From: Myxococcota bacterium
GTDB lineage: Bacteria > Myxococcota_A > Polyangia > Nannocystales > Nannocystaceae
Length of the DNA: 64,000 nt
Direction: 5' to 3'
NCBI GenBank assembly: GCA_039028615.1
Contig: JBCCHT010000010.1
Coordinates: forward strand, 128,001 to 192,000
The translations under genes and the position numbers were made by a program. The notes beneath the pieces were generated by a model. That model searched no databases. It saw only the letters and a program-made list of their open reading frames with translations, and was not told the origin of the DNA. This document shows, piece after piece, positions 2,232 to 50,789 of the stretch. The stretch's first letter is position 1. Each line of letters begins with the position of its first letter.

Positions 2232-5200
2232 ATGATTCGGCTTTCGATCGCCGAGGCAGGCAAGCCTCCGCAACTCCTGACGTTCAATGCGTCGTCGATC
2301 ACGGTGGGTCGCGCGGCGACCAACGAGCTTTGCCTGACCGGTACGGGGGTGTCGAGTAAACACTGTCGCATCACCCGGCAGGGCGACGCCTTCTACATCG
2401 AGGACATGGGCTCGACCAACGGGACCTACGTCAATCGACAGAAGGTCCAGGCACCCATGCCGCTGGGGCCGCAAGACGAAGTGGTCATGGCGGTGTACCG
2501 CCTGCGGATCCTGGCCAACAACGAGACCGGTGCACCGCGACCGGTGACGGGCGCCCAGGCGGTGGTGGGACCTCAATCCGGCGTGGCGGCGACGCCGGGC
2601 CGCCGCGGCCACGCTCCCACGGCGCACGTGCCCGCGCCCAATCCAGGGCAGCCGATGCCGGGCCAGCGGAATGCCCCCTCGGGCGGGTATCCGTCGGTGC
2701 CTGGCTCCAGTCCCTCGATGCCGGGGATGCCGGGTCACCCTGGCTCTAGTCCCTCCGGGGCTCCGGTGACCGGTTACCCGGGATCGAGCCCCTCGGGCAT
2801 GGTCCCACAAGCGCCCAACCCCAACATGATGGGGAGCGGGCAGAGCCCGGTGAGCCAAGGGCCCGCGCCGGGGATGATGGGCAGCGGGCAGAACCCGGTG
2901 AGCCAAGGACCCGCGCCGGGGATGATGGGCAGCGGGCAGAACCCCGCCCAAGCTCCAAGCCAAGCAGGTGCCCAAGGCGGGCAAGACCTCGCCGGACCGA
3001 GCGGGCGCTCCCCCGTCGACAGCGACGTGGGCTGGGAGCGCGAGTGGCAGCAGGTCGAGAAGATGAGCCAGGCGTGGCTCGGCTCGGGCAAGAACAGCAG
3101 CGTGCTGCTCACCGGGGCCAAGCTCAAGCACGCGCGTCAGTGGCTGGCGCAGGGCCGGGGCAAGCGTCCCGCCCCGACCTCGCTGCATCGCGAGTTCATC
3201 GTGGCCGGGACCCGGGCCAGTCGCCTGCGCAGCTTCGGGCTGGCCACGGTGGGGCTGACCTTGGTCGCGGCCGTCGGCGTCGGCGGCTGGTGGTACTCGC
3301 AGCAGGCATCGACCGAGGGCGAAGGCGACGACGAAGGCACGACGACGCTGGTCGATGCGGGCGGCGGGAAGGGCCCCACCAATCGCAGCGGAGACCAGGG
3401 CGATCGTGGCCGCTCCGACGAGATCGCGGCCCAGGCCGAGGCGCTGCTCGAGGTCGACCCGCTGGTGGCCGCCCAGCTCGCCACCGAGGCCGTCGCCTCC
3501 CTGCCGCGCAACGAGCCCGCTCTCGATGCGCCCGCGTTCCGGGTGTTTCGCAAGGCCATGCGCAAGATGCCGGGCCGACCGTTGCGGGGCACTCGTCCGA
3601 TCAAGGCGGTCGCGCTGTCGCCCGACGGGCACTGGGCGATCACCAGCGAGGACGATGGCCGCGGCACGATGCGGCTATGGGATCTGTACAAGTCGGGCAT
3701 CCTGTCCCCGGGCTACCTGCGGGGGCATTCGCAGACGGTCTCGATGATGGAAGTCAGCCGCGACGGTCGCTGGCTCATCACCGCCGACTCCGATGGCCTA
3801 ATCCATCGCTGGAACCTGCAAGAGACGGATCCGTCGTCCACCGGGACCCAGCTGTCGGCGCACCGGGCCGCGATCACGGCGCTGTCGCTCAGCGGCAACG
3901 GGCGGTGGTTGGCCTCGGCCGACGACACCGGTCAGGTGCGGGTCTGGGACCTCGAGCCCACCTTGCCCTCCTCCGTGCTGATGACCAAGGGCCCGGAGGT
4001 CAAGGTCACCGACGTCGCCATCAACTTCGACGGCACGCGGGTCATCGCGTCGAGCGAAGACGGGATGGCGCGCAACTGGAAGCTCACCGACGGACGCCCC
4101 GGCCGAGCGCCGATCTTCGTGCGTCACTCCGAGGACGAGGAAAACCCCATCGCGGTGACCTCAGTGGGCGTGGCCAACGACGACTCGCAAGCGCTGACGG
4201 GCGTGTCCGACGGCACCGTGTTCATGTGGGTCCCGACCTCGCGGGCGCCGACTCGGAAGTGGGAGCCGCGGACGGGCCATAAAAAGGCCGTCAACCACAT
4301 GGAGGTCAGCGTCGACAGCTCGCTGGCCGTGAGCGCGGCCGAGGACAACAACCTCATCGTCTGGAACTTGGGCTCGGGCGCCAGCTCGGTGAAGATGTCC
4401 GGGCACACGGGGGAGATTCATCAGCTCGAGCTGTTCTCGATGCCGGCCGATTTCCCGGCGGGTCGTCGCCCGCCCACCACGGCTTTCAGCGCGAGTGCCG
4501 ATGGTACGGCGCGGAGCTGGAACCTCGACAATCGCAACGCGGGCATCGAGTCGCGGACCTTCACCGGGCATGTCGGTGGGGTGAACTCGGTGGCGGTCTC
4601 CGGCGACGGCCAGTGGGTCCTGACCGGCGGTGGCGGTGGCGTGGCGCGGCTATGGGACTGGCAGTCCGTGCCCGCGGGCGAGGAGTCCGACTCCGAGCTC
4701 CCCGAGGTCGGCAGCGCCTCGTTGGTGGCGCGCGGCCACGCCAAGGCGGTGGTCGCCGTCGGCATCGACAACTACGGGCGGCGCATGCTGACCGGCTCGG
4801 CCGACGGCACCGCGCGGGTCTGGGACCTGCGCAATCCCACGCGGGTCCACGCCATGCCGCTCAAGGACAAGCACGAGTCGCGGATCAGCGTGGCGGCGGT
4901 GTCCTCCGATCCGCGCTACGGCGTGACGGGGGACGACTCCGGGCGCCTGGTGCTGTGGCAGATCTCGCAAGACGAGCCGGCCGGGCTCGTGCTCGAAGGC
5001 CACGGCGGCGAGCTCACCGACGTCGAGTTCACGCCCGAGGGCGACCGCATGGTCTCGGTGAGCACCGACAACACGGCGCGGATCTGGACCATCGGCAAGG
5101 ACATCAAGGAGAGCGTCGCGGTCCTCCAGCACGCCGACGAGGTCACCCGCCTGGCGATCAGCGGCGACAGCAAGTGGCTGCTGACCGGGGCGCTGACCAA

Positions 5201-5873
5201 GGCGGTGCTGTGGAAGCTGGACTCGCCGGACAAGCCGGTGCGCACCTTCGACAAGCACGAGAGCGACATTACGGCGGTGGCGATGGGGCCACGAGGCAAG
5301 TGGGCGGCCTCGGGCAGCGCCGATCATCGGGCGGTGCTCTACGACATCAGCAAGTCCCGGCCCACCACCACCACCTTGCGCAACCACTCGGACACCATCT
5401 CGGTGATGGCGTTCCAGCCCACGGGCAAGTGGCTGGCCACGGGCAGCGACGACAAGACGATTCGCCTGTGGGACCTGCAGTCCGAGCATCCCGACGAGGG
5501 CTCGAGGGTCCTGCCCGATCACGAGGGCGGCATCACGGACCTGCTGTGGAGCCCCGACGGCACGTGGCTATTGTCGGCCAGCAACGACGGTGCGATTCGG
5601 CTCTGGGACATGCGCAAGGACATCGGCGAGATGATCGAAGGCGTCATCCTGCTCGACGGGCACTCCACCGTGGTGCGCCAGCTGGCGCTGGTGCCCGGCG
5701 ACAGCGACGAGGGCATTCGGACGGTGGTGTCGGCCAGCTACGACGGCACCGCGCGCGTGTGGCCGCTCGAGCCGACGCCCTTGGTCATGATGGGCTGCGC
5801 CCGCGTCGGCCAGCGGCTGTCCGAAGAAGAGTGGGCCCAGTACATCGGCGGGGACTACGACCCCAGCTGCTGA
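2232..5873 (+). CDS. FHA domain - P/G-rich linker - helical STAND-type tail - TM - WD40 repeat protein
   Basis: FHA motifs GR, SxxH, STNGT; one TM (FGLATVGLTLVAAVGVGGWW); many GH...WD repeats; C-terminal C-x-R-x-G-x-x-L-S-E-E-E-W...C motif. Confidence 0.9.
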   Translation: MIRLSIAEAGKPPQLLTFNASSITVGRAATNELCLTGTGVSSKHCRITRQGDAFYIEDMGSTNGTYVNRQKVQAPMPLGPQDEVVMAVYRLRILANNETGAPRPVTGAQAVVGPQSGVAATPGRRGHAPTAHVPAPNPGQPMPGQRNAPSGGYPSVPGSSPSMPGMPGHPGSSPSGAPVTGYPGSSPSGMVPQAPNPNMMGSGQSPVSQGPAPGMMGSGQNPVSQGPAPGMMGSGQNPAQAPSQAGAQGGQDLAGPSGRSPVDSDVGWEREWQQVEKMSQAWLGSGKNSSVLLTGAKLKHARQWLAQGRGKRPAPTSLHREFIVAGTRASRLRSFGLATVGLTLVAAVGVGGWWYSQQASTEGEGDDEGTTTLVDAGGGKGPTNRSGDQGDRGRSDEIAAQAEALLEVDPLVAAQLATEAVASLPRNEPALDAPAFRVFRKAMRKMPGRPLRGTRPIKAVALSPDGHWAITSEDDGRGTMRLWDLYKSGILSPGYLRGHSQTVSMMEVSRDGRWLITADSDGLIHRWNLQETDPSSTGTQLSAHRAAITALSLSGNGRWLASADDTGQVRVWDLEPTLPSSVLMTKGPEVKVTDVAINFDGTRVIASSEDGMARNWKLTDGRPGRAPIFVRHSEDEENPIAVTSVGVANDDSQALTGVSDGTVFMWVPTSRAPTRKWEPRTGHKKAVNHMEVSVDSSLAVSAAEDNNLIVWNLGSGASSVKMSGHTGEIHQLELFSMPADFPAGRRPPTTAFSASADGTARSWNLDNRNAGIESRTFTGHVGGVNSVAVSGDGQWVLTGGGGGVARLWDWQSVPAGEESDSELPEVGSASLVARGHAKAVVAVGIDNYGRRMLTGSADGTARVWDLRNPTRVHAMPLKDKHESRISVAAVSSDPRYGVTGDDSGRLVLWQISQDEPAGLVLEGHGGELTDVEFTPEGDRMVSVSTDNTARIWTIGKDIKESVAVLQHADEVTRLAISGDSKWLLTGALTKAVLWKLDSPDKPVRTFDKHESDITAVAMGPRGKWAASGSADHRAVLYDISKSRPTTTTLRNHSDTISVMAFQPTGKWLATGSDDKTIRLWDLQSEHPDEGSRVLPDHEGGITDLLWSPDGTWLLSASNDGAIRLWDMRKDIGEMIEGVILLDGHSTVVRQLALVPGDSDEGIRTVVSASYDGTARVWPLEPTPLVMMGCARVGQRLSEEEWAQYIGGDYDPSC
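2826..2945 (+). repeat. 48-nt in-frame tandem repeat (about 2.5 copies) encoding MMGSGQ(S/N)PVSQGPAPG
   Basis: Units start at 2826, 2874, 2922 with near-identical DNA. Confidence 0.9.
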
Positions 5874-5945
5874 GCGGATGCCGGAATTGGCGACGCGACC
5901 CTCGTCGATGGGGGCCGCGTCATCGGCTCGGAGTGGCTCTCGAGC

Positions 5946-7760
5946 CTAGTGCGTGCGAGCGGTGTGCTTGATGCAGCGCTTCTCGTGGGGCCCGCACTTG
6001 AAGCGCACGTGCATGTGGTGAATGTGCGCGGGCGAGTGGGAGAGGATGCCCGCGTTGCTGTGGGGCCCGCGGGGCCACTGGATCGTCTCCTCGAGCTCCT
6101 CGTCGCTGACGCCGAGGAATTTGGCCGCGTTGTACACGTTGGGCTGGATGGTGTGGTCGAGGAAGATGTTCTGCACCGCGCCCGTGTCGATGAGCGCCCG
6201 GACGAGGCCCCAGGTGGCGAACCAATCCGCCTCCTCGGGGTTGGGCCGGCGACCCCATTTCTCGTCGCCGTCCTCGGTCAGGTACTTCTCTTTGAACACG
6301 CCGCGCACGGTGGGGAGCCAAATGTCGATGTCGCGGCCGGTCTGGTGGGACTTGTGCGGGTTGAAGTGCCCGCCCTTCCTCTTGGAGACGTCGGCCAGCA
6401 CCAGGGTGCCGTCGAAGTCCATGTCCTGCCGGAACTTGGCGACCGCGGTCTGCACGTTGGCCACGAGGTAGCCCGAGCCCCACATGATGTAGGCGTAGCG
6501 CCGCTTGTACAGGTCGGGCTGGTCGGGGATCTGGACCGCGTTCTCGAGGCTGCCGCTGTTGGGCGAGCCGATGGCCTGCGCGTTCTTGTCGAGGACGAAC
6601 TCGGGGATCTTCTGCCGCGGGAGCTTGGGCGCGTAGGGCTTGGGGTCGATCCAGATGGTGACGTCCTCGCCCGCCTTGAGCTTGGCGACGCCCGGGTTGT
6701 AGGCCCGTAGCTTCATGGCCGACACGCCGAAGCGCGCGGAGAGCTTCGACCAGGAGCTGTCCTCTTTTTCGAGCTCGTAGTTGATCTTCTGCTGGGCCAA
6801 CGGACGCTTGGTGGGCTTTTTGATCTTGACCTCGTCGCCCGGGTTCAAGTTCGGCTGATCGGGGTTGATCAGGTTCCACTCCGCGATCTTGGCCACGGTG
6901 ACGCCGTAGCGCTGCGCGACGTCGTCGAGGGTCTCCTCGGGCACCATGTGGTGCGTGATTTCCTTTTTGATCTTGGCTCGAGGCTCGCGGGGCTCGGGCT
7001 CGGGCTCCGGTTCCAGCTCGGGCTCGGGCTCGGGCTCGGCCTTGGTCTCGGTCTTCGCCTTGGTCTCCGGCTCGGGCTCGGGCTCGGACTCGGGCCACAG
7101 CACGACGGTCGCCGCGACCAGGCCCCCCAGCACGAGCACGCCCCCGGCGATGGTGCCTACGCGCTTGGCCGCGCGCCGAGTATTGGCGCCCCGGCTCGCC
7201 TCGATGATCTCCCGCTGGAGCGGCGTGATCTGTTGCTGTCGGTCGGCGGGAGTGCCCGCCAGCCAGGCCTCGGCTCGCTCGAGCTCGCGCGGGCGCAGGG
7301 TCAGCTGATCGGTACGACCGGCCGCGGCCCACTGCTCGGCGGCACGCGAGATTCGAGCATGCTCGTCCCGCCACGCTCGATCGCCGCGCTGCATCAGGAT
7401 GCCCGCCCCCTGTCCGACCTCGCGGGTGCTCTCGTCCAGCATCGCGGTCGGGTTGTGCGGGCTGACGCCCGCGGCGGTGTTGACCTGGAGCAGGTACTGC
7501 CCCACGTAGATCCGATCGCGTTCGGTCAGCGGTTGCGACCGCTGCACGGGAGCATTGTTGACGAAGGTCCCGTTGGTCGAGCCGCGATCCTCCAAGACGC
7601 ACTGATGGCCAGTGACCAAGAAGGCGCAGTGGTGGGAGGACACGCCACCGGCTTCGAGCACGATGGTGTTGTCGGGCGCACGGCCCAGGGTCAACTCCAT
7701 CGCGTCGAGCGGGATGGTCTTGACCGTACCGTCGGGAGCGGTGATGCGGAGCGAGAGCAT
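5946..7760 (-). CDS. FHA - helical tail - TM - LysM x2 - MepA-like penicillin-insensitive murein endopeptidase
   Basis: FHA GR/SSHH/STNGT; TM; EP linker; LysM (ETLDDVAQRYGVTVAKIAEWN); LAS Zn motifs SHQTGRDID and HMH. Confidence 0.87.
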   Translation of the reverse strand: MLSLRITAPDGTVKTIPLDAMELTLGRAPDNTIVLEAGGVSSHHCAFLVTGHQCVLEDRGSTNGTFVNNAPVQRSQPLTERDRIYVGQYLLQVNTAAGVSPHNPTAMLDESTREVGQGAGILMQRGDRAWRDEHARISRAAEQWAAAGRTDQLTLRPRELERAEAWLAGTPADRQQQITPLQREIIEASRGANTRRAAKRVGTIAGGVLVLGGLVAATVVLWPESEPEPEPETKAKTETKAEPEPEPELEPEPEPEPREPRAKIKKEITHHMVPEETLDDVAQRYGVTVAKIAEWNLINPDQPNLNPGDEVKIKKPTKRPLAQQKINYELEKEDSSWSKLSARFGVSAMKLRAYNPGVAKLKAGEDVTIWIDPKPYAPKLPRQKIPEFVLDKNAQAIGSPNSGSLENAVQIPDQPDLYKRRYAYIMWGSGYLVANVQTAVAKFRQDMDFDGTLVLADVSKRKGGHFNPHKSHQTGRDIDIWLPTVRGVFKEKYLTEDGDEKWGRRPNPEEADWFATWGLVRALIDTGAVQNIFLDHTIQPNVYNAAKFLGVSDEELEETIQWPRGPHSNAGILSHSPAHIHHMHVRFKCGPHEKRCIKHTARTH

Positions 7761-10090: not shown

Positions 10091-11761
10091 TCACAGATCG
10101 GAGTCGAAGTTGAACGATGCCCCCGCCAGCGCGGCGCCGATCGAGGTGTGAACGGCCGGTTCCCCCTGCGCATCCGTGCGGACCTCGAGGGCCACGGCGC
10201 CTCGCGGGCTGCGGGGGAGGAAGTTGGTCGAGGCGTCGGCGAGCCGGGCGGCGAGCTCCTGGGAGGTGGCCTGGGGCGGCAGATCGTCGCGTACGGCCTG
10301 CGTCAGGCGCGAGGCTCGCCCGGCCAGGATACGTCCCGGCAAGGTGAGATCGTGCTGCCCGGGCTGGACCATCGGGGCGGCGGCGAGGCGGAGCCGGTCG
10401 GTGCCCTGCTCGCTGCCCAGCACCAGCACGCCGCGGGCCGCCAGGGCCCGCTGACGATCGATGGAGGCCAAGCGCTCGGTGGCGACGGTGGGGCTGCCCT
10501 CGTCCTCGCCGAGCTGATGCGAGGCCGGGCTCACCAGGGCGCCGGCTCGGCCGAAGATCTGACCGGGGCCGCCGGTCTGACCGACGCTGGCCGAGATCAT
10601 CGACGCGACGCCCCACACCGGGCTACCGAACACGATGCGGCGGGCGAGCTTGTTCTGTTCGTTGGCGAGCACCACCGCATTCGAGGCGGCGCACAGCCAC
10701 GAGGTGCTCTCGTTCTTGCGGAGCTCGGTCCAGCCCTCGGGGGCCGGGGCGGCCTCGGGCAGGTCGTCGAGCCAGGCTCCGGTGGTGCCCTCGGGGATCT
10801 CCACGACGATCGGCACGCGGCTGCGCGCGCCGAGCTCGGCCAGGGCCTGCAGCTTCTCGATGGTGTTGACCGGCAGCGCCACGAACACCGCGTCGGGGCG
10901 CTCCATCGGCGGCACGTCGAGGCGCGGTCCGAGGTGCGCCACGAGTGCGTCGGCGTTGGTGTCGACGAGATCGATGCCGAGGTCGTCGGCCCCGGGCGAG
11001 GCGGACACGACCATTCGGAGCCCACGCCACGCGGACTCGAGGTCGCTGACGGTGGCGGCGGCCATCAGGTCGAGCGCGGTGGACTCGACGGCGCCGTCGA
11101 TGAGCTGCGCGACTTCTCGCTCGATCGGCGTGCCGCGTTTTTGGGTGGTCGTGCTGCTCGACTTGCTGCCCCGCATCGCGCCGATGAACGCGTCCAGGCC
11201 CGACTTGGCGGCCGCGGTCGGCTCGGCCGAAGTGGCCGGCGAGGCGACGTCCGCCTTGCCGAAGATGGCGTCGAGGGCCGAGCCGCCCGACGAGGTCTCG
11301 GGGGCGGGGCTCGGGGCGGGCTCGGGGGCAGGGGCGGGCGCTTGGGTCACCGCGGGAGCGGGAGCCGGGGCTTCATTCGCGGCGCCCGAGCGTAGCTGCT
11401 CGATCGCCTCGATGAGCTTGCCGCGGCCGACGGCGGCCTCGACCTTGCGCACCGCGGCGTCGAGGTTGCCCTTCTTGGTCAGCTCGGCGGCGATGCCCGA
11501 CAAGGTGCTGAGGACCTCGACCTGCTTGATGACCTCGGTGAGCCGGAACTCGGTCGGGCGCGCGAAGGTCAGCGAGACGCTGCGCGTGGCGGCCGAGCCG
11601 AGACCATCGGGAATCTCGACCGTGGTCGACAGGCCGACCTTGGACATTACGGTACGAAATCGCTCCCCCGAAGCCGGCGTCACTCGGCCGGTTGGAGTCG
11701 CGCTGAAGGGGGCGGCGACGAGCCATCGGAGGGGTCGCGCTTGGCCGACGGGCGAGGACAT
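10091..11761 (-). CDS. Type VI secretion contractile sheath-like protein, TssB-like N-terminus fused to TssC-like C-terminus
   Basis: N-term LRWLVAAPFS...RFRTVM...SLTFARPTEF...VIKQVEVL resembles VipA/TssB; LESAWRGLRMVV matches the VipB/TssC LEsaWRgL motif. Confidence 0.65.
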   Translation of the reverse strand: MSSPVGQARPLRWLVAAPFSATPTGRVTPASGERFRTVMSKVGLSTTVEIPDGLGSAATRSVSLTFARPTEFRLTEVIKQVEVLSTLSGIAAELTKKGNLDAAVRKVEAAVGRGKLIEAIEQLRSGAANEAPAPAPAVTQAPAPAPEPAPSPAPETSSGGSALDAIFGKADVASPATSAEPTAAAKSGLDAFIGAMRGSKSSSTTTQKRGTPIEREVAQLIDGAVESTALDLMAAATVSDLESAWRGLRMVVSASPGADDLGIDLVDTNADALVAHLGPRLDVPPMERPDAVFVALPVNTIEKLQALAELGARSRVPIVVEIPEGTTGAWLDDLPEAAPAPEGWTELRKNESTSWLCAASNAVVLANEQNKLARRIVFGSPVWGVASMISASVGQTGGPGQIFGRAGALVSPASHQLGEDEGSPTVATERLASIDRQRALAARGVLVLGSEQGTDRLRLAAAPMVQPGQHDLTLPGRILAGRASRLTQAVRDDLPPQATSQELAARLADASTNFLPRSPRGAVALEVRTDAQGEPAVHTSIGAALAGASFNFDSDL

Positions 11762-24021: not shown

Positions 24022-24144
24022 GGGCCCGCGAGTACCCCCTCGGACGAGTGGTTCGAATCCTCTCGTCGCGCGCGAAAATGTGACCTGATGGCCACCTCGC
24101 GGCAAAGGCTCGGGATCGTTACACTGCGCGAGTCGGCACCGCCC

Positions 24145-25131
24145 ATGCCTTGGCAGATTCGAGCGATCGCGGGCCCTCTCGAGGGGGCTGTCTATGTGCT
24201 TCGCCGCCGCGCCATGTTCGGCCGGGCTGGCGATTGCGACATTCAGATCATCAACGACGGTGTCTCGCGAAGGCACGCCAAGCTCGTCGTCGAACCGGAT
24301 GGCCCGGTGCTCGTCGACCTACGATCCAACAACGGCACATTCGTGGGTGACGAGCGGATCGAGCGTCGCTCGTTGTCGCCGGGTGACGAGTTTCGGATCA
24401 TGAGCGCTCGCTTCTGTCTCGAGAACGCGAAGGCGCTCGCGGAGCAGGGGCACGACTCGGAAGTGTGGGCGGTCAAGGTGACCAGCGGTGTGACCTTGCG
24501 GCAGACGGTCGACCACTTGGCGGTGCCTCGCCACCAGCCGCCGCCCCGCGGCGACACCCTCGAGGACTTCGAGACGCGGCCGGCTCGACCCAAGGTGCAG
24601 GCCAAGCCCCTGCTGCGGATCGGGCGAAAGCGTGAGCCCGAGCGGCATCGCATGACCGCCATGAAGCCCGACGGCGAGCCCTATGCGGGTGACCTCGTCG
24701 GCGACTTGTTGATCTTCCGCGACCTGCAGCTGCGCATGATACGGCGTGAAACGCTCTCGCCCGTGGAGCACCGCGCGTTGGCTCATCTGACCACGGTGTT
24801 CCAGCAGGTGGCCGACGATCCCAGCCCGCACGCAGGCCTACGACGTTTTCAGCGATTTGGGTGCCGTTTCCCGGCGCGGGTGCGATGGTTGGAGGGGTCG
24901 ATCGAACACGTCGCTCCGGTCTCCGTCGTGGACGTCGGGGTGGGGGGAGCACGCGTTGCGTGGCGTTCGCACGCCTTGGACGCGGGCGTCGTGGCGTGGC
25001 TGGTCATCGATCGATTCATCGGCGGACAGACCCGAACCGTGGTGCTACCCACCCGAGTCGCATGGACCACCGAAACCGACCTGGGCCTGCAGTTTGCCGG
25101 CACCCAGGAGTGGGAAGAAAATTCGGGCTGA
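24145..25131 (+). CDS. FHA - PilZ domain protein (short paralogue)
   Basis: FHA GR/SRRH/SNNGT; PilZ RRFQR and DVGVGG; start MPWQIRAI aligns with the paralogue start. Confidence 0.85.
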   Translation: MPWQIRAIAGPLEGAVYVLRRRAMFGRAGDCDIQIINDGVSRRHAKLVVEPDGPVLVDLRSNNGTFVGDERIERRSLSPGDEFRIMSARFCLENAKALAEQGHDSEVWAVKVTSGVTLRQTVDHLAVPRHQPPPRGDTLEDFETRPARPKVQAKPLLRIGRKREPERHRMTAMKPDGEPYAGDLVGDLLIFRDLQLRMIRRETLSPVEHRALAHLTTVFQQVADDPSPHAGLRRFQRFGCRFPARVRWLEGSIEHVAPVSVVDVGVGGARVAWRSHALDAGVVAWLVIDRFIGGQTRTVVLPTRVAWTTETDLGLQFAGTQEWEENSG

Positions 25132-25309
25132 ACGCTCGATCGGTGTTCTGGTTCGGGCCACTTCGTGGTAATGCGCGGATTCGCGACGACGATCGACTCG
25201 GAACCACCGAACACCGCCCGACCCGAGTTCGTATCATGCAACGGTTTCTGCTCCCGAGCTGAACGGCTCTGGACTGATAGACTGCGGGTCCGTTCGGGCC
25301 ACGGCTGCC

Positions 25310-28960
<3,651 letters not shown>

Positions 28961-28975
28961 GGAGCGAACCCCACG

Positions 28976-31900
28976 GTGCTGACCCGGGCCCCCGCTGGCG
29001 CGGGAACGGAGAGTCCGTCCGAGCCGGCTCGGGTGATCGATGGTCGCTACGAGGTCGTGCGAGAGCTCGGCCGCGGAGGCATGGGCGTCGTGTATCAGGT
29101 CTTCGATCGCGCGACCCAGCGCGACCTGGCCCTCAAGCAGCTGCTCTCCGCCGACGTCGTCTCGACGACGGGTCAGCGCGAGCGCTCGACGGTTCGGTTT
29201 CGTCGCGAGTTCCACACCGTCGCCGGGCTCAGCCATCCCTGTGTGGTCACCGTCTACGAGTACGGAATCGAGCTCGACCAGCCCTACTACACGATGGAGC
29301 TGCTCGAGGGGCCGACCCTGAGCCAGCTGCTTCGCGCTCCGGTGACGCAGTGCTGTCGGATCCTGCGGGGCGTGGCCTCGGCCCTGGCCTTCTTGCACTC
29401 GCGGCGCCTGCTCCATCGCGACCTCAAGACTCGCAACGTCCGCTGCGACGCGTCGGGCCGACCCAAGCTCTTGGACTTCGGGATCCTGGCCACCATGGGG
29501 GTGGCGGGTGACGTGGCGGGCACGCCTCCCTGCATCCCCCCCGAGGCGCTGTGGGGGCTGCCGCTGGACGCTCGCTCCGATCTGTTCGGCTTGGGGGCGC
29601 TGGGCTATCGCTTGGTCACGGGCAAGCAGGCCTACCCGGCCAAGACGCTCGAAGAGCTCGAAGAGCACTGGCAGCGACGACCGACCCTGCCCTCGCGAAT
29701 GCGGGAGGACATTCCGCCCGCGCTCGACGATCTGCTGCTGGCCTTGCTGAGCGTGGAGCCCGAGGGGCGACCCAGCACCGCGGCCGAGGTCATCGCTCGG
29801 CTGGACGTCATCGGAGGGCTCGAGCGCGCGCCCGAGCTCGACGTCGCGCGCGGCTGGCTGCAGAGCGCGAGGCTGGTGGGTCGAGAGCAAGAGCTGGAGA
29901 CCATCCGTGGCACCGTCGAAGACGCGAGCCAGGGCGTGGGCTCGATGCTGGTGGTGCACGGCCCCTCGGGGGTGGGCAAGACGCGGCTGTTGCGAGAGGC
30001 CGGGCTGCACGCGCAGCTGTCGGGGGCCACGGTCTTGCGGGGACGCGGGCGGGGCACCCGGCACGCGCCCTACGACCTCGTGCGTCAGCTGGTCCGAGAC
30101 ATGTGGCGGGTGTGCCCCAACGAGGCGGCGGCCAGCGGCGGTCGCCATGCTCCGGTCTTGCGACGGGTCATCCCCGAGCTTCGGCGCGGTCGCGAGTCGC
30201 AAAGCTCGGCCGTGCACGCCCCTCCGGCCGAAGAGCGCCTGCGCCTGCAGGAGTCGCTGCTCGAGTGGTTCCTCGAGCTGGCCAAGCGACGGCCGATCAT
30301 CATCCTGGTCGACGACCTCGAGTGCTGCGACGAGGGCTCGGCGACGCTGCTCGCGTCTCTCGGTCACGTGGCGCCCCGGCATGCGTTGGCCGTGCTCGGG
30401 GCTCGCCGCACGGAGACCGCCGCGGGCACGCGTCGCGGGTGGTGGACAGGCGTGGGCGAGTCCTTGCGCCTCTCCGAGCTCGACCGGGCCGCGGTCTCGG
30501 AGCTGGTACGAGACTGGTTCGGCGAGCTTCCGGGCGCACCCGAGCTCGCGGAGTGGATCCACCGCGCGGCGGGGGGCAGCCCCATGCACTGCTCCGAGCT
30601 GGCCCGACACTTGGTGGAAGAGGGCATCGTGCTCTACACCGACGGGATCTGGCGGCAGGTCGCCGATCCCGAGGACGCCCAGCCCCCCGATCGGATGACG
30701 GAGGCGATGGATCTGCGGGTGGAGGCTCTGTCCGTGGTGGGTCGAGCGATGGGCCAGGCCCTGGCGCTGTGGCGCGGCCCAGCCCCGGTCGAGCTGTGCG
30801 CCGAGCTGCTGCAGACCGGCGAGCTGGGCCTGGTGTTCGAGGCGCTGGACGAGCTGGTCTACGAGGAGATCATCGTCGGCGGCGACGAGGGCTTCGAGCT
30901 GGTCCACGACGGCATCCGCGACGCGCTGCTGCGGGTCCTCGAGCCCGACCGGCGGCGGCTCATCCACGAGATCACGGCCGAGCTGATCGTCGATCGCTGG
31001 GGGCAGGAGGGGGGAGACCGCCAGGCCGACCTGGGCTGGCACCTGCTGCGAGCGGGCCGACGCCGCGACGGAGCGCAGCTGCTCGAGCGCGCGGGTCGGC
31101 GGCGCTACGCGCTGCGGTCCTTCGAAGACGCGGTCGACCTGCTCGAGGCTGCGCTGCAGGTCTACCTCGAGGACGATGAACCGGGGGACGAAGTCCGGGC
31201 CCTCGAGCTGCAGTCGATGTTGGTGCGGGCGGGGGTCATCGGTGACCGCGCGGCGGTCGTTCGCTACGCCGAGGTCACCATCGAGGCCTTTGCTCGCCGC
31301 AGCGGCCTGCCGCTCGCCCGACGCCTGGCCCGATGGACGGGGCGGCGCATCGGCTTGGCCGCGGGCCTGGCCTGGGCGTCGGTGGGCTGGCTGCTCCGCG
31401 GTCGGGCCCACCGCGGCCCCAGCCCTCGCAATGCCCTCGCGACCACGGTGGCGCTCACCAACTACGTCGCCACCGTCTACGCGATGGCCTTCGATGTCGA
31501 TCGGGTCATGGCGCTGCGGCAAGGCGTCGACGTTGTTCGGGGGGTCCGCAACTCGGCGGCCGAAGCGGCTTCGGCGATGCTCGACGGCCTGGTCGCGCTG
31601 AGCACCGGGTCTTGGCGAGAGGCCCACCAAAAACTCATCGCGGTCGATGCCGCGATCTTGGCGTCGGAGCCCGCCTCCATGTCCGAGATGGATCGCCGCA
31701 TGTTCTGCGGCGGGGCGCGGGTATTGAAGCTGGTCATCGAGGCGGTCGAGCAGGACGGGGCCTTCGAGGAATCCCTCGACACGCTCACGGCGATGAAGAT
31801 GCGCTTCTTCTCGCTCGGGGCGCAGATGAGCCGGGTGTACTTCCATCGGCTTCGCGGCGAGGAAGAGCAGGCCCGCGGCGTGCAGCGAGACGCGGATCTC

Positions 31901-32656
31901 TCCGTCGTTCAGCTCGGCAACGCGTGGACCTTCGAGTCGCTGCGGGCCTGGGTCTCCGCCTTTGCCCATGGCCTCACTGGAGACGTGGTCGGGCTGCGAC
32001 GGGCGGCCGACGAGCTCGAGCGCCTCGACCGGGCGGGCCTACGGCTGGGTCCCTTCGTGGCCGCGGCGCAGGCCGACCTCGAGCTATTGCACGATCATCC
32101 CCAGCCCGCTCGCGAGAGCCTGGCCGCGGCCCTCGCCGAGCTTCCGCCCTCCCAACGGCTGGCGCGGCTGGTGCTGCGAGCCTCGCAAGTGGCCTCCTTG
32201 GTGGCGCTGGGCTGTTTCCGGGAGGCCATCGAGGCGGCCGAGCGAGCGCTCGAGGAGGCTCCGGCTGGCACGGGCCCCGGGGCGGCTCGGGTCCGGGTGC
32301 GCTGCGGCCTGGCCGTGGCCCTGGCCCGCACCGATCGCTTCTCGCAAGCGCATCGCGAGCTCGATGCGCTGATCGTCGAGGTCGCGGAGTTCGACAACCC
32401 GATGTTGATGGGCCTGGTTCGCGAGACGGGAGCCGAGATTGCCGCCGCGGGCGGGGACGACCAGGCCCAGCGCCGTCATGCCGCGTCGGCCGAGCTGCTC
32501 TTCGCCTCCACGGGCAACCCGGTGCTCATCGCCCGGGCACGGCGCTTGGTGGCTGCGCTGCCCGAGTCGACCCTGCCGGAGGCGGGCGCCGACGAGGACG
32601 ACGACGGGCTCGAGTCGGACACCTTCGAGACCGTCGATTTGCGACCCCTCAAATGA
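28976..32656 (+). CDS. Ser/Thr kinase - STAND/AAA_16 ATPase - helical (TPR-like) protein
   Basis: GRGGMG, LALK, HRDLKTRN, DFG, GTPPCIPPE; LVGREQEL, Walker A GPSGVGKT, Walker B ILVDD, GGSP; GAGGAG RBS before GTG. Confidence 0.9.
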   Translation: MLTRAPAGAGTESPSEPARVIDGRYEVVRELGRGGMGVVYQVFDRATQRDLALKQLLSADVVSTTGQRERSTVRFRREFHTVAGLSHPCVVTVYEYGIELDQPYYTMELLEGPTLSQLLRAPVTQCCRILRGVASALAFLHSRRLLHRDLKTRNVRCDASGRPKLLDFGILATMGVAGDVAGTPPCIPPEALWGLPLDARSDLFGLGALGYRLVTGKQAYPAKTLEELEEHWQRRPTLPSRMREDIPPALDDLLLALLSVEPEGRPSTAAEVIARLDVIGGLERAPELDVARGWLQSARLVGREQELETIRGTVEDASQGVGSMLVVHGPSGVGKTRLLREAGLHAQLSGATVLRGRGRGTRHAPYDLVRQLVRDMWRVCPNEAAASGGRHAPVLRRVIPELRRGRESQSSAVHAPPAEERLRLQESLLEWFLELAKRRPIIILVDDLECCDEGSATLLASLGHVAPRHALAVLGARRTETAAGTRRGWWTGVGESLRLSELDRAAVSELVRDWFGELPGAPELAEWIHRAAGGSPMHCSELARHLVEEGIVLYTDGIWRQVADPEDAQPPDRMTEAMDLRVEALSVVGRAMGQALALWRGPAPVELCAELLQTGELGLVFEALDELVYEEIIVGGDEGFELVHDGIRDALLRVLEPDRRRLIHEITAELIVDRWGQEGGDRQADLGWHLLRAGRRRDGAQLLERAGRRRYALRSFEDAVDLLEAALQVYLEDDEPGDEVRALELQSMLVRAGVIGDRAAVVRYAEVTIEAFARRSGLPLARRLARWTGRRIGLAAGLAWASVGWLLRGRAHRGPSPRNALATTVALTNYVATVYAMAFDVDRVMALRQGVDVVRGVRNSAAEAASAMLDGLVALSTGSWREAHQKLIAVDAAILASEPASMSEMDRRMFCGGARVLKLVIEAVEQDGAFEESLDTLTAMKMRFFSLGAQMSRVYFHRLRGEEEQARGVQRDADLSVVQLGNAWTFESLRAWVSAFAHGLTGDVVGLRRAADELERLDRAGLRLGPFVAAAQADLELLHDHPQPARESLAAALAELPPSQRLARLVLRASQVASLVALGCFREAIEAAERALEEAPAGTGPGAARVRVRCGLAVALARTDRFSQAHRELDALIVEVAEFDNPMLMGLVRETGAEIAAAGGDDQAQRRHAASAELLFASTGNPVLIARARRLVAALPESTLPEAGADEDDDGLESDTFETVDLRPLK

Positions 32657-32711: not shown

Positions 32712-35700
32712 TCAGCCGCCGCTGGAGCCACCGCCGCCGGAGCCACCGTCGCTACCGCCATCGGTGTCACCGTCGGTCTCGCCACCGGTCCCGGTGCCGC
32801 CGTCGTCCTCGTCACCGCAGGCCGGCTTGTTCTCGACGCTGTACTCACCGTTGCAGAACCGGCCGTTGTCGGGCCAGACGCGACCGTTGGCGTCGATGTA
32901 GGGCTGGTTCTCCGGGTCGAAGTCGAACTCGCAAAGGTCGCAGGGGTCACCCAGACCGTCGTAGTCCTGGTCGAACTGCGGCAGGAAGCAGAGGTTGCTC
33001 CACAGCGCGTCGAGGTCACCGTCGAAGTCGTCGACGGTCAGCTTGGCGTTGTCACGCGGGTCGCTGCCGTTGAGGGCTTCCTCGCAGCCCGCGGGCGGGG
33101 TCAGGATGCCCGGAGCGAGCGCCACCGAGGTGGGCAGCTTACGGCAGGTGTCGTCGGTCTCCTCGTCACACTCGACCTTGACCACGCGGCCATCGGGGTC
33201 GAGCAGGGGCGCGGAGGGCTGCTCCACACCATCGTCACGCGGCGGCAGGTTGATCTGCAGCTCGCCGTTCTCGTCCTCGAACAGAGCGACGGTGCAGCAG
33301 TAGCCGTTGGCCGAAGTCTCGTAGAAGGAGAAGGGACGGGCGTCGACGCGACGCTCGCAGGAGGAGTGCGTCTCGCAGGCGTTGCCCACGAAGTCGCCGT
33401 CGGTGTCGTCGGCTTCCTGGTTGGCGCCGTCGATGACCTGCATCGGGTTCTCGGCGAACGGGCAGGTGTCGCACACGTCACCCACGCCGTCGGCGTCGGT
33501 GTCGAGGTGGTCGCAGATGCCGTAGGCCGTCTCGCAGCGGCGGTTGGCGGGACAGTCCGCGTCGCTGCTGCACTGGACCTGCTCGTCGGCGGTCAGAGCC
33601 ACCGGCTGGCGGGGGCAAGCGTCGGCCACGTTGGCGATGCCGTCCTGGTCGAAGTCGTCGTCCGGACCGATGCCGATGACACCCGCGGCGAACGCGTTGG
33701 GCATGAGGGCTTCGCACGCGTCGCCGACCATGTCGTCGTTGGCGTCGAGCTGGCAAAGGACGTTGTCGTCGTAGGCGATCGGGTCGCCGATGGCCCACAC
33801 GTTGTCCGGACCGTAGTCCTCGCAGTTGGCGGTCAGGATGCAGTTGTCACACGCATCGCCGATGCCGTCGCCGTCGCTGTCGTCCTGGAACGGAACGTTG
33901 CGGACCAGCATGTAGCCGAGCGGCGAAGCCTCGTCCTTGTTGTACTGGCGGGCGGACTGGCGACAGGTGTCGCACTCGTTACCCACGCCGTCATCGTCGG
34001 AGTCGGCGGTGTCGTCGGACGAACCGGCCAGGGTCGGGCACAGGTCGATCACGTCGCCGAAGCCGTCGCGGTCGATGTCGCCCTGGTCGGGGTTGAAGAA
34101 GTCCGGCGCGTTGTCACAGCTGAGCTGGACGTTGTCGAGGTCCTGGTCCTCTTTGCACTTCGGCTGGTCGATGGTGAAGTCGTAGAGGAAGTCCGGGTCG
34201 GCCGAGACGTTGGTGGTGATGAGCGGCATGCCGCACACGTCCCAGAACGCCTCTTGGTAGGCGACGGGGTCGTTCATCTGATCCCGGCGGGTCAGGCCCG
34301 GCACCCACAGTCGGTAGGTGGCGCCGGTCTGAAGGACGGGGCCGAACTCGGTCGGGTCGATCTCGACCCCGACCTCACCGATGATCTGGTTGCCGATGTC
34401 GACGGTCAGGCAGGGCACGGGAGCCACGCCAGCGTCGAGGTCGGCCTGCGTCGTGGCGCAGTTGGGACCACCCGCGACGAGCTCGTCGAAGCGGTCGTTC
34501 CAGGCGATGGTGCCCGTGTCGTCCGGGACGAGTCGCCAGATCTGGATCTTGGCGAGGTTCTCCGGGCTCATGTCGTACTTGTTCGAGAACCGAATCGAGA
34601 AGTCGTTACAGGCACCGATCCGAAGGTTGTCGGAGGGGAAGCCACTTCCCGGCTCGACGTGGAAGTCGGGCGTCTCGAAGGTGTAGCTGGCCTTGCCGGC
34701 GAGGGTGTTGCCGACCTTGTCCTGGACGAACTGGCCGCCGTCTTCCGGGGTATTGAAGTTGACCGTGTAGGACGACCCCGAGCACAGCGAGCGGTCGAAG
34801 TCCTCGACGTTCTCCGGCTGGAAGGAGTCGTTGGCGCGCCAACCGTCCTCGATGTTCCGGTCGTCGATGAGGCCACGGCCCTCGGCGCAGCTCTCGATGT
34901 CGGCCCGGGGAACGCCGCCGATGTCGGCGGGGCGCCACTCGAAGCCCTTGATGGCGGGGTCGTAGACGACACCACCGACGCGGGAGACGAACTTGACCGC
35001 GTACTGCTCGGCCCGCTCCTCGCGGGGAGCAGCGTTGTCACCGCTGGTGCGGACCTCGTCGGCGTTGAAGCAACCGATGCGCCACACGTCGAGGCACTGG
35101 TCGGGCGAGCCGTAGTCCTCGATGAAGTCCTGCGTCTCTTGGCTGCCGTCGTTCGGGTCGATGGCCCGGAGGTCGGCGAGGGTGCGGCCCGGCGCGCACT
35201 TACAGTTCTTGCTGGGCTCGGGGAGGGTGTCGTTGCGGTCGTAGACCTCGATGGGCGAGACGTCCTGGAACCAGGGGTCACAGGCCTGCCCGTCGGTGCA
35301 GCCGTCCTCGGAGTCACAGGCAACGCCGTCGACGCCGTTCAGCAGCGAGTCTTGGCAGCACTCGGAAGCGATGAGCGTGCCGTCCTCGTTGTGGTCGCAG
35401 AAGGCGAGCCGGTTTCCGGGAGGAGCCGTGGAGCAGTTGTTGCCCTCTTCGTCGCACAGGGCGTCGAAGTTGGAGTTGTTGAGCAAGCAGGCACCGGCGC
35501 CGCGCTCGTCGTAGCGCTGGTCGACGCAGAAGCCTTCGACGAGCTCGGTGGCGACGATGGCGTCGCCCGAGGTGTCGTTGTAGCTGCGGCAGGACACGAA
35601 CCACTCGGCCACGCAGCGGCCGTCGGTGCAGCCCTCGGGGTCGATGGCCGGGTCACAGGCCTCGCCGGCCTCGTTGCGACCGACACAGTCGGTGCCGGGC

Positions 35701-36923
35701 AGGTCGTGGCCCGCGCTGGAGCGGCACTGCGCGGTGTCGGTGCACGACGCGTTGCGACGCTCGAGCCACTCGGGACGATCGTCCGGGTGGGTCTCGCGAA
35801 GCTGGTCGTAGTACGGCATCAGGTAGGACGTCGGCTCGCAGCCGGGGTCCATCGCCGGGTTGCAGTCCCAGAAGTAGCGGTAGCTGATCTCCTGCTCGCC
35901 GCGACCGACCCAGGGGACGAAGTCGCGGCACTGCGTGAACACGTCGCCGGCGGGGTCGCAGACGATGGCGCTCTGGCTCTCGACGAGCGAGTCGCGGATG
36001 CCGTCGAGGTCGAGCGGGTCCGCGCCGTCGGGCACTGCAAAGAGGTTCGCGTTACGGGTCTGGCCGGCGGTCTGGAGGTCGTCGAGGGTGACCCCGTCAG
36101 CCGCCTCGGAGGTCAGGCCGTAGCGGGCGACCTGCGTGGACAGCAGGAAGTCGCAGCGCGAGCAGCAGGTGTCCGGGCCCTCTTCGGGGGTGTCACAGGA
36201 GCTGCCGCCCACCGTCCAACGACCCGAGTACGAGGTGACCGTGCCGTCCGTGTCCAGCTTGCGGGGCAGGCCGGTGACCGGGCTGACCATGTTGCAAGGG
36301 TTGGTGGCCGGGTCCTGGTAGTCCTCGTGACCGAAGTCGATGCCCTCTTCGCGCAGGTTGTCGATGCACGAGAGGTTGACCAGGCGGGTCATCAAGTCGG
36401 GCTCTTCCGTCGCGCCCTTCTTGTAGTCGCCGTTGAACCGGGTGATCGGACCCTCGATGTCGAGGACGCGCGACTTCCAGTCGTAGACCTCGAACAGCTG
36501 GGGGTTGTCCGGTCGCTTGCGAACGAGCTCGATCGACGTGGGATCGAGCAAGTTGTTGAACACGAACTCGATGCCGAAGGCGGTCACCAGCGGGGAGATT
36601 TTGCAGTACTCCTCCGCGCCGCGAGGGGACTCGAGGGCTTCCTCGGTCTCTTCGCAGGGGCCGATCTCTTCGATGAAGTACGTCCCACTGCTGAAGTCGG
36701 CTGGGCAGTCGCTGCCCTCGCACTGGGGGTTGAGCAAGTGAATCTTGCGAGACGCGTAGTTGATGCCAGAGATGCTCTCGAGCAAGAGGTTGTCGGGATC
36801 GCAGATACCGCAATCGGAATCCTCGATGCACCCGCTTGCACCCACGGACATAGCCGCGAGCAAGAGCCCTCCAGCGACGAGTCCTCGCCGTCCAGAGTTC
36901 GACTTCGCTGCCTTAGTGGTCAT
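32712..36923 (-). CDS. Large Cys/Asp-rich surface lipoprotein with thrombospondin type-3 Ca-binding repeats
   Basis: ASGC lipobox; repeated DxDxDG(V/I/F)GDxCDxC; many Cys; Gly-rich tail. Confidence 0.87.
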   Translation of the reverse strand: MTTKAAKSNSGRRGLVAGGLLLAAMSVGASGCIEDSDCGICDPDNLLLESISGINYASRKIHLLNPQCEGSDCPADFSSGTYFIEEIGPCEETEEALESPRGAEEYCKISPLVTAFGIEFVFNNLLDPTSIELVRKRPDNPQLFEVYDWKSRVLDIEGPITRFNGDYKKGATEEPDLMTRLVNLSCIDNLREEGIDFGHEDYQDPATNPCNMVSPVTGLPRKLDTDGTVTSYSGRWTVGGSSCDTPEEGPDTCCSRCDFLLSTQVARYGLTSEAADGVTLDDLQTAGQTRNANLFAVPDGADPLDLDGIRDSLVESQSAIVCDPAGDVFTQCRDFVPWVGRGEQEISYRYFWDCNPAMDPGCEPTSYLMPYYDQLRETHPDDRPEWLERRNASCTDTAQCRSSAGHDLPGTDCVGRNEAGEACDPAIDPEGCTDGRCVAEWFVSCRSYNDTSGDAIVATELVEGFCVDQRYDERGAGACLLNNSNFDALCDEEGNNCSTAPPGNRLAFCDHNEDGTLIASECCQDSLLNGVDGVACDSEDGCTDGQACDPWFQDVSPIEVYDRNDTLPEPSKNCKCAPGRTLADLRAIDPNDGSQETQDFIEDYGSPDQCLDVWRIGCFNADEVRTSGDNAAPREERAEQYAVKFVSRVGGVVYDPAIKGFEWRPADIGGVPRADIESCAEGRGLIDDRNIEDGWRANDSFQPENVEDFDRSLCSGSSYTVNFNTPEDGGQFVQDKVGNTLAGKASYTFETPDFHVEPGSGFPSDNLRIGACNDFSIRFSNKYDMSPENLAKIQIWRLVPDDTGTIAWNDRFDELVAGGPNCATTQADLDAGVAPVPCLTVDIGNQIIGEVGVEIDPTEFGPVLQTGATYRLWVPGLTRRDQMNDPVAYQEAFWDVCGMPLITTNVSADPDFLYDFTIDQPKCKEDQDLDNVQLSCDNAPDFFNPDQGDIDRDGFGDVIDLCPTLAGSSDDTADSDDDGVGNECDTCRQSARQYNKDEASPLGYMLVRNVPFQDDSDGDGIGDACDNCILTANCEDYGPDNVWAIGDPIAYDDNVLCQLDANDDMVGDACEALMPNAFAAGVIGIGPDDDFDQDGIANVADACPRQPVALTADEQVQCSSDADCPANRRCETAYGICDHLDTDADGVGDVCDTCPFAENPMQVIDGANQEADDTDGDFVGNACETHSSCERRVDARPFSFYETSANGYCCTVALFEDENGELQINLPPRDDGVEQPSAPLLDPDGRVVKVECDEETDDTCRKLPTSVALAPGILTPPAGCEEALNGSDPRDNAKLTVDDFDGDLDALWSNLCFLPQFDQDYDGLGDPCDLCEFDFDPENQPYIDANGRVWPDNGRFCNGEYSVENKPACGDEDDGGTGTGGETDGDTDGGSDGGSGGGGSSGG

Positions 36924-39103: not shown

Positions 39104-39182
39104 GACGCGGGAAGCATAGCAATGTCGAGCGTTCCACTCCATCGGGCACCGCCCGAGGCCCGACGCGTTACGATGTCGGGCG

Positions 39183-50582: not shown

Positions 50583-50789
50583 TGGGGCTCACCTGCCACA
50601 AAACGGCCCTGACGTCACCTCCCGTCGCCTCCGGGGGGCGGAAAAACGTGCTCGATGGCGCGCGAGGCGGGGTCATGGGATCCCCTCGGGGGCCGGGTTC
50701 GGTATGCTCCAGGGGCGCGTGCCCGCCCTACGACCCCCGAATGCCCCCGCGCTGGGTGCGGCCAGGGCCCCGACCCCCCCGGAGACGCC

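Follow-up and report, generated by a model that had tools for sequence, protein, structure and literature searches.

A pair of FHA-stalk-transmembrane proteins tied to type VI secretion clusters in the Nannocystaceae

Organization of the locus

We analyzed a stretch of 64,000 nucleotides from a Myxococcota bacterium of the family Nannocystaceae (contig JBCCHT010000010.1 of assembly GCA_039028615.1, positions 128,001 to 192,000, hereafter the window), and describe a pair of convergent genes in it, here called A and B. Both proteins begin with an FHA domain and continue through a related helical block to a single predicted transmembrane (TM) helix, beyond which A carries WD40 repeats and B two LysM domains and an M74 (MepA-like) endopeptidase domain (Table 1). 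Their stop codons are 72 bases apart, and neither a sigma-70 promoter nor a terminator was found between the genes. A Ser/Thr kinase gene, K, lies 42 bases upstream of B on the same strand, and a lipoprotein gene diverges from A. [quoted passage not shown]

An initial annotation of the window, made from the letters alone, had already recorded the two convergent open reading frames (ORFs), and its peptides and coordinates hold, with the block starting at aa 268 of A (nt 3033) and aa 130 of B (nt 7373). Pfam, hydropathy and alignment against shuffled sequences (0 of 5,000) bear out its N-terminal FHA domain, related block and single TM helix in both proteins, and Pfam likewise its WD40 repeats in one and LysM-LysM-MepA in the other. 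It called these outer domains "swapped"; they do differ, but the word is loose. It missed the adjacent kinase, the lipoprotein and the linkage to the T6SS.

Table 1. Genes A and B and their neighbors in the window, with domain positions
Feature	Position	Strand	Remarks
Gene A, 1213 aa	2232..5873	+	FHA, Pro/Gly linker, helical stalk, TM, WD40, Cys-Cys tail
A FHA domain	2298..2489	+	Pfam FHA E 1.7e-18; G26-R27, S41, H44, N63 (alignment)
A helical block (putative three-helix juxtamembrane stalk)	3033..3233	+	No Pfam family of its own
A predicted TM helix	3240..3299	+	Basic residues on N side, acidic on C side
A WD40 region, predicted periplasmic	3579..5771	+	C1189/C1213 pair in tail
Gene B, 604 aa	5946..7760	-	FHA, stalk, TM, Pro/Glu linker, LysM, LysM, M74 (MepA-like) endopeptidase
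B FHA domain	7500..7691	-	Pfam FHA aa 24-87
B helical block (putative stalk)	7170..7373	-	Local alignment, profile
B predicted TM helix	7098..7154	-	Hydropathy 2.27, charge pattern
Two LysM domains of B	6648..6953	-	Pfam LysM aa 274-314, LysM_RLK aa 331-365
M74 metallo-endopeptidase domain of B	5973..6608	-	Pfam M74; aligns to E. coli MepA 1tzp, E 6.4e-7
Kinase K, 681 aa	7803..9848	-	Ser/Thr kinase, juxtamembrane repeats, TM, TonB_C-like periplasmic domain
Lipoprotein, 217 aa	1424..2077	-	Lipobox ...SGC; divergent from A
Degenerate TssB-TssC (sheath) fusion-like gene	10091..11761	-	Same strand as K and B; precedes K

Proteins A and B

In A, Pfam finds the FHA domain at aa 23-86 and 12 WD40 stretches, which probably correspond to about 14 blades in two propellers. 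All parts of the FHA signature (G-R, S-x-x-H and N), the residues that we take to read phosphothreonine, are kept in the A protein of the window, and of 38 A-type ORFs, a count that includes one frameshifted B, 36 have the domain. In the 26 aligned B orthologs, which are 40-72% identical, the corresponding G26, S41, H44 and N63 are invariant and R27 is present in 25. The M74 domain of B scores 51.1 bits against a cut-off of 25 and has the H-x6-D and H-x-H motifs; H469, H472, D479, H582, H584 and C589/C596 are invariant in all 26 orthologs, and H472, D479 and H584, presumably the zinc ligands, line up with 1tzp. By these alignments both the MepA-type catalytic motif and the FHA motif of B are intact.

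The TM helix of A is the single hydrophobic helix after the block, and its hydropathy is only moderate (1.7). In the orthologs the helix nearly always follows 3-7 Lys/Arg residues, with fewer basic and often acidic residues beyond it. Because of this positive-inside pattern both A and B, which the initial annotation rightly took to be transmembrane proteins, are predicted to be oriented N-in/C-out, with the FHA domain and block in the cytoplasm and the WD40 or LysM-M74 part in the periplasm; conserved Cys pairs at both C-termini fit this placement.

Full-length B homologs that are named to family belong to the Nannocystaceae (Plesiocystis, Enhygromyxa, Paraliomyxa and Nannocystis), and many others are loosely labeled metagenome-assembled genomes. 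Plesiocystis pacifica SIR-1, Enhygromyxa salina and Paraliomyxa miuraensis are cultured carriers.

Some lineages have lost the FHA domain and yet keep the block and TM helix; the block therefore has a role of its own, as far as such comparisons can tell. In the L190 lineage both A and B start at the stalk, as B does in the L062 and L063 lineages. We also note that an A paralog in genome G013 (L045:1-2232) and the B gene of genome G298 (L143:11810-13572) are broken by a frameshift or stop, for which an assembly error is possible. A second M74 paralog in the window (60187-61479) is TM-anchored and lacks an FHA domain, and its motifs look intact.

Association with type VI secretion across genomes

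The A-B-K cassette is genomically tied to T6SS clusters. The family was represented by 51 genomes of 14 genera, each at least 85% complete. The block occurs in 40 of them and TssK in 42, such that 40 genomes have both, none has the block only, two have TssK only and nine have neither; stricter cut-offs, which were set after the lists had been seen and remove 15 block rows out of 108 and 9 TssK rows out of 66, give 38, 0, 2 and 11, respectively. By position, 55 of the 93 strong block matches are on a contig that also carries tssK, and for 39 of the 93 the distance to tssK is at most 35 kb (1.0 expected), in 19 genomes and four genera. Two block genes lie within 25 kb of each other on one contig in 23 of the 51 genomes, from five genera, so the pair first pointed out in the window is indeed conserved.

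In maps of relatives the cassette borders on, or is embedded in, clusters with TssA-M, ClpV, TagF and TagH. In particular, G298 has the order clpV, hcp, tssB-tssC-K-B and then convergent A; in G023 the convergent B and A lie between tssBC and tssFG; and G019 (C26) and G287 (C53) carry the cassette within a second T6SS cluster. TssC, Hcp, TssF, TssM, TssL and TssK were all present in the five genomes searched. The idea that A and B replace a missing TssJLM complex was ruled out, since TssJ, K, L and M are present.

Block copy number tracks T6SS number. All five genomes of genus g15 have two TssK and four blocks, and G014 and G019 have two T6SS clusters with an A/B pair near each. K proteins are 73-76% identical within type 1 and 47-55% across types, compared with 66-68% and 45-52% for TssK, and A identities also separate by T6SS paralog, as those of TssK and TssM do. 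These identities indicate that A and K were duplicated together with the T6SS. In the genome of the window, K, A and the single T6SS are all of type 1.

We also surveyed the best 80 of 127 B-like loci, which were drawn from the GTDB collection that also supplied the family genomes and so are not independent of them; TagH and TagF were counted as T6SS-cluster genes. Among the 40 FHA-bearing B loci, a kinase is directly upstream in 33, a convergent WD40 gene is present in 20 and a T6SS-cluster gene lies in the fetched flanks of 20. The same features were seen in 4, 4 and 6, respectively, of the 40 M74 loci without FHA, some of which are truncated or FHA-less B orthologs. Tag proteins are encoded in, or co-distributed with, T6SS clusters, and the cassette shows this family-wide, not by position in the present genome.

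Kinase K

The kinase motifs of K are intact. Its juxtamembrane repeats have the form G-x-T-hydrophobic-hydrophobic-L-D/G, and in 15 orthologs (a scorable region was present in 15 of the 26 loci tried) 39 such motifs were observed against 1.8 in shuffled sequences, with a pattern chosen post hoc, after the K of the window had been viewed. The remaining TM kinases of this genome that were compared, 36 in number, contain the motif 6 times, against 3.5 when shuffled. FHA domains prefer pT-x-x-L/I (pT+3), and the repeats of K, as sequence motifs, fit that preference. A search with the low-complexity linker of K was insensitive, with matches in 14 of 51 genomes. A stand-alone TM protein with a TonB_C-like domain of the K type is encoded beside A or B in type-2 T6SS clusters (L059:10728-11285; L128:5250-5813; L151:11568-12155).

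The shared helical block

The block is about 70 residues long. Those of A and B align with a Smith-Waterman score of 81, which none of 5,000 shuffles reached (mean 27, maximum 63), and by this measure they are homologous. Among the 107,593 six-frame ORFs of the genome, the best non-self match of the B block is A (E 0.014) and that of the A block is a scattered one on contig C15 (E 0.010), followed by B (E 0.016); with an iterated profile, A and B are the only strong matches in this genome. A profile was built from 32 aligned blocks of the A and B types. Single weak matches aside, none of the 32 members matched a Pfam family, two profiles found no sequence match in the PDB, and fold searches returned nothing at E ≤ 0.001, the best Z of 6.2 being usual for helical bundles. 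An AlphaFold2 (AF2) model from a 56-row alignment has three helices, with a predicted local distance difference test (pLDDT) score of 82.8.

Against 1.84 billion representative sequences the A/B profile gave 7,207 matches at E ≤ 0.001. Among the best 150, in a ranking that favors multi-copy proteins, 149 carry the block 2-7 times at a spacing of about 200 residues, with a TM helix usually closing the series, and none matches the Walker A pattern used. Of 28 of these that were scanned, 27 have TIR_2 repeats with WD40, TPR, FGE or Cache domains outside, and one is of the FHA type. The 150 proteins (P0001-P0150) thus represent a large family in which (TIR + stalk) units are repeated 2-7 times in tandem and are mostly followed by a TM helix and a WD40, TPR, FGE-sulfatase, Cache or multi-TM C-terminus.

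In 251 genomes of the phylum the same profile matched at 28 places, of which the family accounts for 6 and other taxa for 22, and most of the latter blocks are directly behind a winged-helix HE(A/S)L motif. Ten out-of-family loci were scanned; seven are nSTAND1 (PF20703), one TIR and two other AAA-like, and none of the ten has an FHA domain. A broader profile that includes STAND blocks, and is thus partly circular, gave PF20703 proteins in 118 of its best 120 rows, mostly kinase-nSTAND1 fusions. The reverse test was weak, with the A/B profile exceeding 13 bits on the post-NTPase block of 3 of 17 nSTAND1 loci, although a W..G..LW.G pattern is visible in more of the 17 than these three. The last 15-20 or so positions of PF20703 overlap the first helix of the stalk. 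A plasmid search gave FHA-only matches, in four records.

The initial annotation took the block for the pattern that follows the NTPase of nSTAND1 proteins, and this stands in part: the block does occur behind winged helices and NTPases, and in HHalign comparisons of block profiles, with STAND sets picked by the A/B profile itself, A and B align with each other (99.1%) and with the STAND helices (97.8% for A, 98.5% for B), as that annotation had anticipated. It also follows TIR domains, however (A-TIR 99.2%), and the A profile scores these blocks higher (median 49.8 bits vs 28.0 for STAND-type blocks). Because of this the block is better regarded, from its sequence relatives, as a general juxtamembrane stalk common to TIR, nSTAND1 and FHA proteins than as a STAND marker. 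A quick tree of the blocks was largely unresolved. As to the further proposal that an FHA domain has replaced the NTPase, FHA could equally have replaced TIR.

Neighboring genes

The lipoprotein has no Pfam or NCBIfam match. Its AF2 model (pLDDT 86.9) is mostly beta; the best fold match has Z 3.8, with nothing clear, and matches in the Atlas are unnamed. It is present in 42 of the 51 family genomes, which are the same 42 that have TssK. In the 251 phylum genomes it was found in two, both in the family, and in the out-of-family sample TssK occurs in 15 and the lipoprotein in 0 of 249 genomes. Among the genomes searched, the lipoprotein family is thus confined to T6SS-bearing Nannocystaceae. A shorter paralog (G000:C2:275844-276269) lies upstream of an apparent nqr operon (judged by translated N-termini only), far from T6SS genes.

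The gene at 10091-11761 falls below the cut-offs for a canonical sheath protein, with T6SS_VipA at E 0.0013 (19 bits vs a cut-off of 24) and VipB at E 6.2e-6 (25.9 bits vs 27), and matches PDB TssC at E 0.014. In G308 an intact 727-aa TssB-TssC fusion is upstream of K-B, and the gene order lipoprotein/A/B/K/sheath-like recurs, whole or in part, in relatives. Family T6SS clusters have a second TssC-like gene (L142:2465-4645; L145, L146, L148), which may be a relic or a sheath regulator.

Several other features were seen in these T6SS clusters. Another unnamed lipoprotein (about 330-360 aa, no Pfam match) lies beside tagH (G000:C34 118.5-121.2 kb; L125:16724-17710). An FHA protein beside tssJ (G000:C34:133300-135942; L125:714-3308) has a C-terminus that weakly matches T2SSE/CpaF ATPase (E 4.9e-6) and recalls an FHA-fused Kil ATPase. 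Between clpV and tagH, type-1 clusters of three genera have genes for a histidine kinase and a thiamine-pyrophosphate enzyme as well as small ORFs (L132:11283-16428; L125:10926-15051; L126:5849-10944), and in G019 two SPFH/Band-7 genes and a small membrane gene lie between A and B (L057:5891-9153).

Elsewhere in the window are two FHA-PilZ proteins followed by a kinase-AAA_16 protein (24088-32653), a 1379-aa thrombospondin-type-3-repeat protein with weak similarity to MtsC (32715-36851), a PP2C phosphatase (38345-39604), a kinase-TPR protein (47379-49778) and a zinc-ribbon...FHA protein (50655-54041).

Comparison with known systems

TagX of Acinetobacter and Burkholderia, an inner-membrane VanY-type L,D-endopeptidase with two N-terminal TM helices and a periplasmic C-terminus, and MltE, a transglycosylase recruited in enteroaggregative Escherichia coli (EAEC), are both wall hydrolases needed for T6SS assembly (sections of PMC13584744); parts of PMC9251886 agree on both and add that A. 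baylyi has TagX without Fha, PpkA or PppA. B resembles TagX as a predicted inner-membrane-anchored peptidoglycan peptidase with a periplasmic C-terminus and a tie to the T6SS, and differs in having one TM helix, an M74/MepA domain, two LysM domains and a cytoplasmic FHA domain and stalk. On these likenesses B would work like TagX without being TagX. The H-x-S-H-Q-x-G-x-D-x-D and H-x-H motifs of B also align with those of E. coli MepA, which is a soluble periplasmic enzyme, and among the 15 M74-like ORFs of this genome, including LysM2-M74 paralogs of the myxobacterial kind, B alone has the FHA-stalk-TM head.

The known T6SS threonine phosphorylation pathway, to which TagF also belongs, couples TagE/PpkA to TagH/Fha1, with TagQRST or RtkS (sections of PMC13584744). 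Like PpkA/TagE, K is a TM Ser/Thr kinase with intact motifs that in relatives lies beside FHA proteins in a T6SS cluster with TagH and TagF, and by analogy it would work like PpkA; its TonB_C-like outer domain sets it apart. The FHA partners in the known pathway are of the TagH type, whereas here there are two extra membrane-spanning FHA proteins with periplasmic domains. T6SS_FHA_C (PF20232) is not among the six Pfam matches of B, TIGR03354 is far below cut-off for both A and B, and true TagH genes sit elsewhere in the T6SS clusters.

Myxococcota also have nSTAND1 (PF20703)-TM-WD40 proteins, often kinase-nSTAND1 fusions, with the same stalk before the TM helix and WD40 repeats outside. A has the C-terminal WD40 repeat sensor typical of STAND proteins and B does not; unlike nSTAND1 proteins, neither has an NTPase (no PF20703 match) or a winged helix, and their stalk follows a disordered linker and FHA. 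The closest non-FHA relatives of the stalk are the (TIR-stalk)n-TM proteins with WD40, TPR, FGE or Cache domains, many of which resemble A in their C-terminal repeat-plus-Cys tail. They differ in having TIR domains (no match in A or B) in place of FHA and 2-7 stalks rather than one, and T6SS linkage is seen only for A and B. By its domain order A appears to be a TIR/NLR-type receptor chassis with an FHA head.

In Myxococcus xanthus the T6SS has been linked with conflict between siblings and with kin discrimination rather than with the killing of prey, and FHA-rich Tad/Kil clusters are noted in the same literature (parts of PMC5801462 and PMC8460266). LysM, WD40 and "myxo" do not occur in the main text of PMC13584744, and its Table 1 includes neither a WD40 nor an FHA-hydrolase factor, nor any entry from myxobacteria. 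The architecture is likewise not described in the available parts of PMC10907252 and PMC7159879, and we found no paper that describes an FHA-stalk-TM-hydrolase/WD40 architecture, although T6SS survey tables may hold these genes unremarked. The A/B pair is real, conserved and undescribed in the literature searched.

A model for the module and its alternatives

With modest confidence we favor the view that these genes form a T6SS accessory module of the Nannocystaceae, in which a PpkA-like K docks a TagX-like wall hydrolase, B, through its fused FHA domain, and A is a sensor or scaffold. K, as the PpkA/TagE equivalent, would autophosphorylate its repeated juxtamembrane T-x-x-L sites, and the FHA domain of B would bind these or other T6SS phosphosites. 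Docking would bring the periplasmic LysM2-M74 endopeptidase to the T6SS assembly site, where it would make room for the TssJLM complex by opening the peptidoglycan of the cell itself, as is done elsewhere by TagX or MltE. A, with its chassis of a TIR/nSTAND1-stalk-TM-WD40 receptor, would be a periplasmic sensor or scaffold with a role like that of TagQRST or RtkS, and is probably also docked by activated K through its FHA domain; the shared three-helix stalk would couple the cytoplasmic domain to the TM helix. That B opens the wall for T6SS assembly is fairly probable, gating by K is only slightly favored, and a true sensor role for A is tentative.

A number of observations weigh against this model. 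In the present genome the T6SS core is on contigs C34 and C19 and the cassette on C10, none of the 10 block matches in its genus shares a contig with tssK, and in that genus the cassette is detached from the T6SS cluster; in genus g17 the distance between block and tssK is 63-165 kb. Of the strong tssK loci, 25 of 57 have a block within 35 kb, a figure lowered by fragmented assemblies, and a second T6SS (G004:C10) has the lipoprotein and a kinase and neither A nor B. The cassette itself varies: genus g14 has A and B apart, no kinase separates tssC from B in G023, 3 of 44 complete B-type ORFs lack the FHA domain that the other 41 have, and type-2 A paralogs have Tyr instead of the conserved FHA Asn. 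B identities split weakly by T6SS type (46-53% within, 43-47% across), and the post hoc choice of the K motif counts here as well. The clusters already encode TagH-type FHA proteins and TagF, and therefore the partner of K need not be A or B. Finally, the 51 genomes are kin, so that their co-occurrence profile is not 51 independent tests, and seven of the nine genomes that lack both block and TssK are small (4.3-6.0 Mb); FHA-less LysM-M74 paralogs are present in the five such small genomes checked.

An unlikely alternative keeps the tie to the T6SS and makes the module protective, with A sensing envelope damage or incoming attack and K and B driving local wall repair or remodeling, perhaps with counter-firing. 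The T6SS linkage data suit it equally, the chassis of A is that of TIR- and nSTAND1-WD40 conflict receptors, and the phosphorylation pathway of P. aeruginosa answers attack and membrane damage (sections of PMC9251886). TagX, on the other hand, is a direct precedent for a single-pass wall hydrolase in a T6SS cluster as an assembly factor.

Slightly less probable is a general kinase-FHA circuit for wall remodeling in growth, sporulation or predation that is just carried along in T6SS islands, or that was co-opted once it had become detached, as in this genus. The detached cassette of genus g1 and the distant one of g17, the degeneracy of the adjoining sheath-like gene, and the abundance of kinases (129 kinase-motif ORFs), FHA proteins and M74 paralogs all point that way. 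Against it, the block was found without TssK in none of the 51 genomes, its copy number and paralog identity follow the T6SS, and it is the FHA-less M74 paralogs that occur in T6SS-less genomes and are rarely T6SS-linked.

The initial annotation suggested that the shared helix might join A and B, and a stand-alone NLR-like sensor-hydrolase heteromer of this kind, with FHA as its switch, is improbable. The blocks are homologous, the pair is conserved and often convergent (20 of 40 B loci), and block and TM helix persist in some lineages without FHA; yet A and B are unlinked in g14 and lie on the same strand 9-22 kb apart in the second clusters of g10, the block is also repeated behind every TIR of tandem single-chain proteins and occurs behind NTPases, as would suit a structural stalk, and K and the T6SS are left out. 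An A-B heteromer is compatible with the accessory-module model as an added detail.

Most improbable is that the T6SS delivers B as an effector that lyses walls, with the lipoprotein as its immunity protein. B is a predicted peptidoglycan hydrolase encoded in T6SS clusters, G014:C1 has a paralog of the lipoprotein directly downstream of B, and M. xanthus TsxE is a LysM-bearing effector (parts of PMC5801462), but B has a predicted TM helix that leaves its N-terminus inside and its FHA domain in the cytoplasm, Pfam finds no PAAR, VgrG or RHS domain in it, and the lipoprotein follows TssK rather than B and is present in clusters without B. T6SS effectors are polymorphic, unlike the well conserved B.

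A bolder version of the accessory-module model, which we regard as speculative and on the doubtful side, is that the T6SS trigger of the Nannocystaceae was rebuilt from immune-receptor parts. A TIR/NLR-type stalk-TM-WD40 receptor and a stalk-TM wall hydrolase would each have been re-headed with FHA so that one membrane kinase brings both, as sensor and peptidoglycan drill, together at the firing site, making wall opening a phosphorylation-gated checkpoint. The stalk would then be an unnamed and widespread domain (7,207 representative proteins) for coupling across the membrane, common to TIR, nSTAND1 and FHA receptors.

Implications for T6SS control

How T6SS control mechanisms relate to spatial and temporal control is described as unclear (sections of PMC9251886). 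In known systems the phosphorylation pathway and the dedicated hydrolase, where present, are distinct parts, whereas B would fuse a phosphothreonine reader with the hydrolase, and therefore the link between timing or position and wall opening can be tested directly with point mutants. The locus adds three candidate T6SS accessory families, A, B and the lipoprotein; it also defines a helical domain, so far unnamed, through which T6SS control is linked with TIR/NLR-like receptors. In the Nannocystaceae, the module probably decides where the wall is opened for the T6SS.

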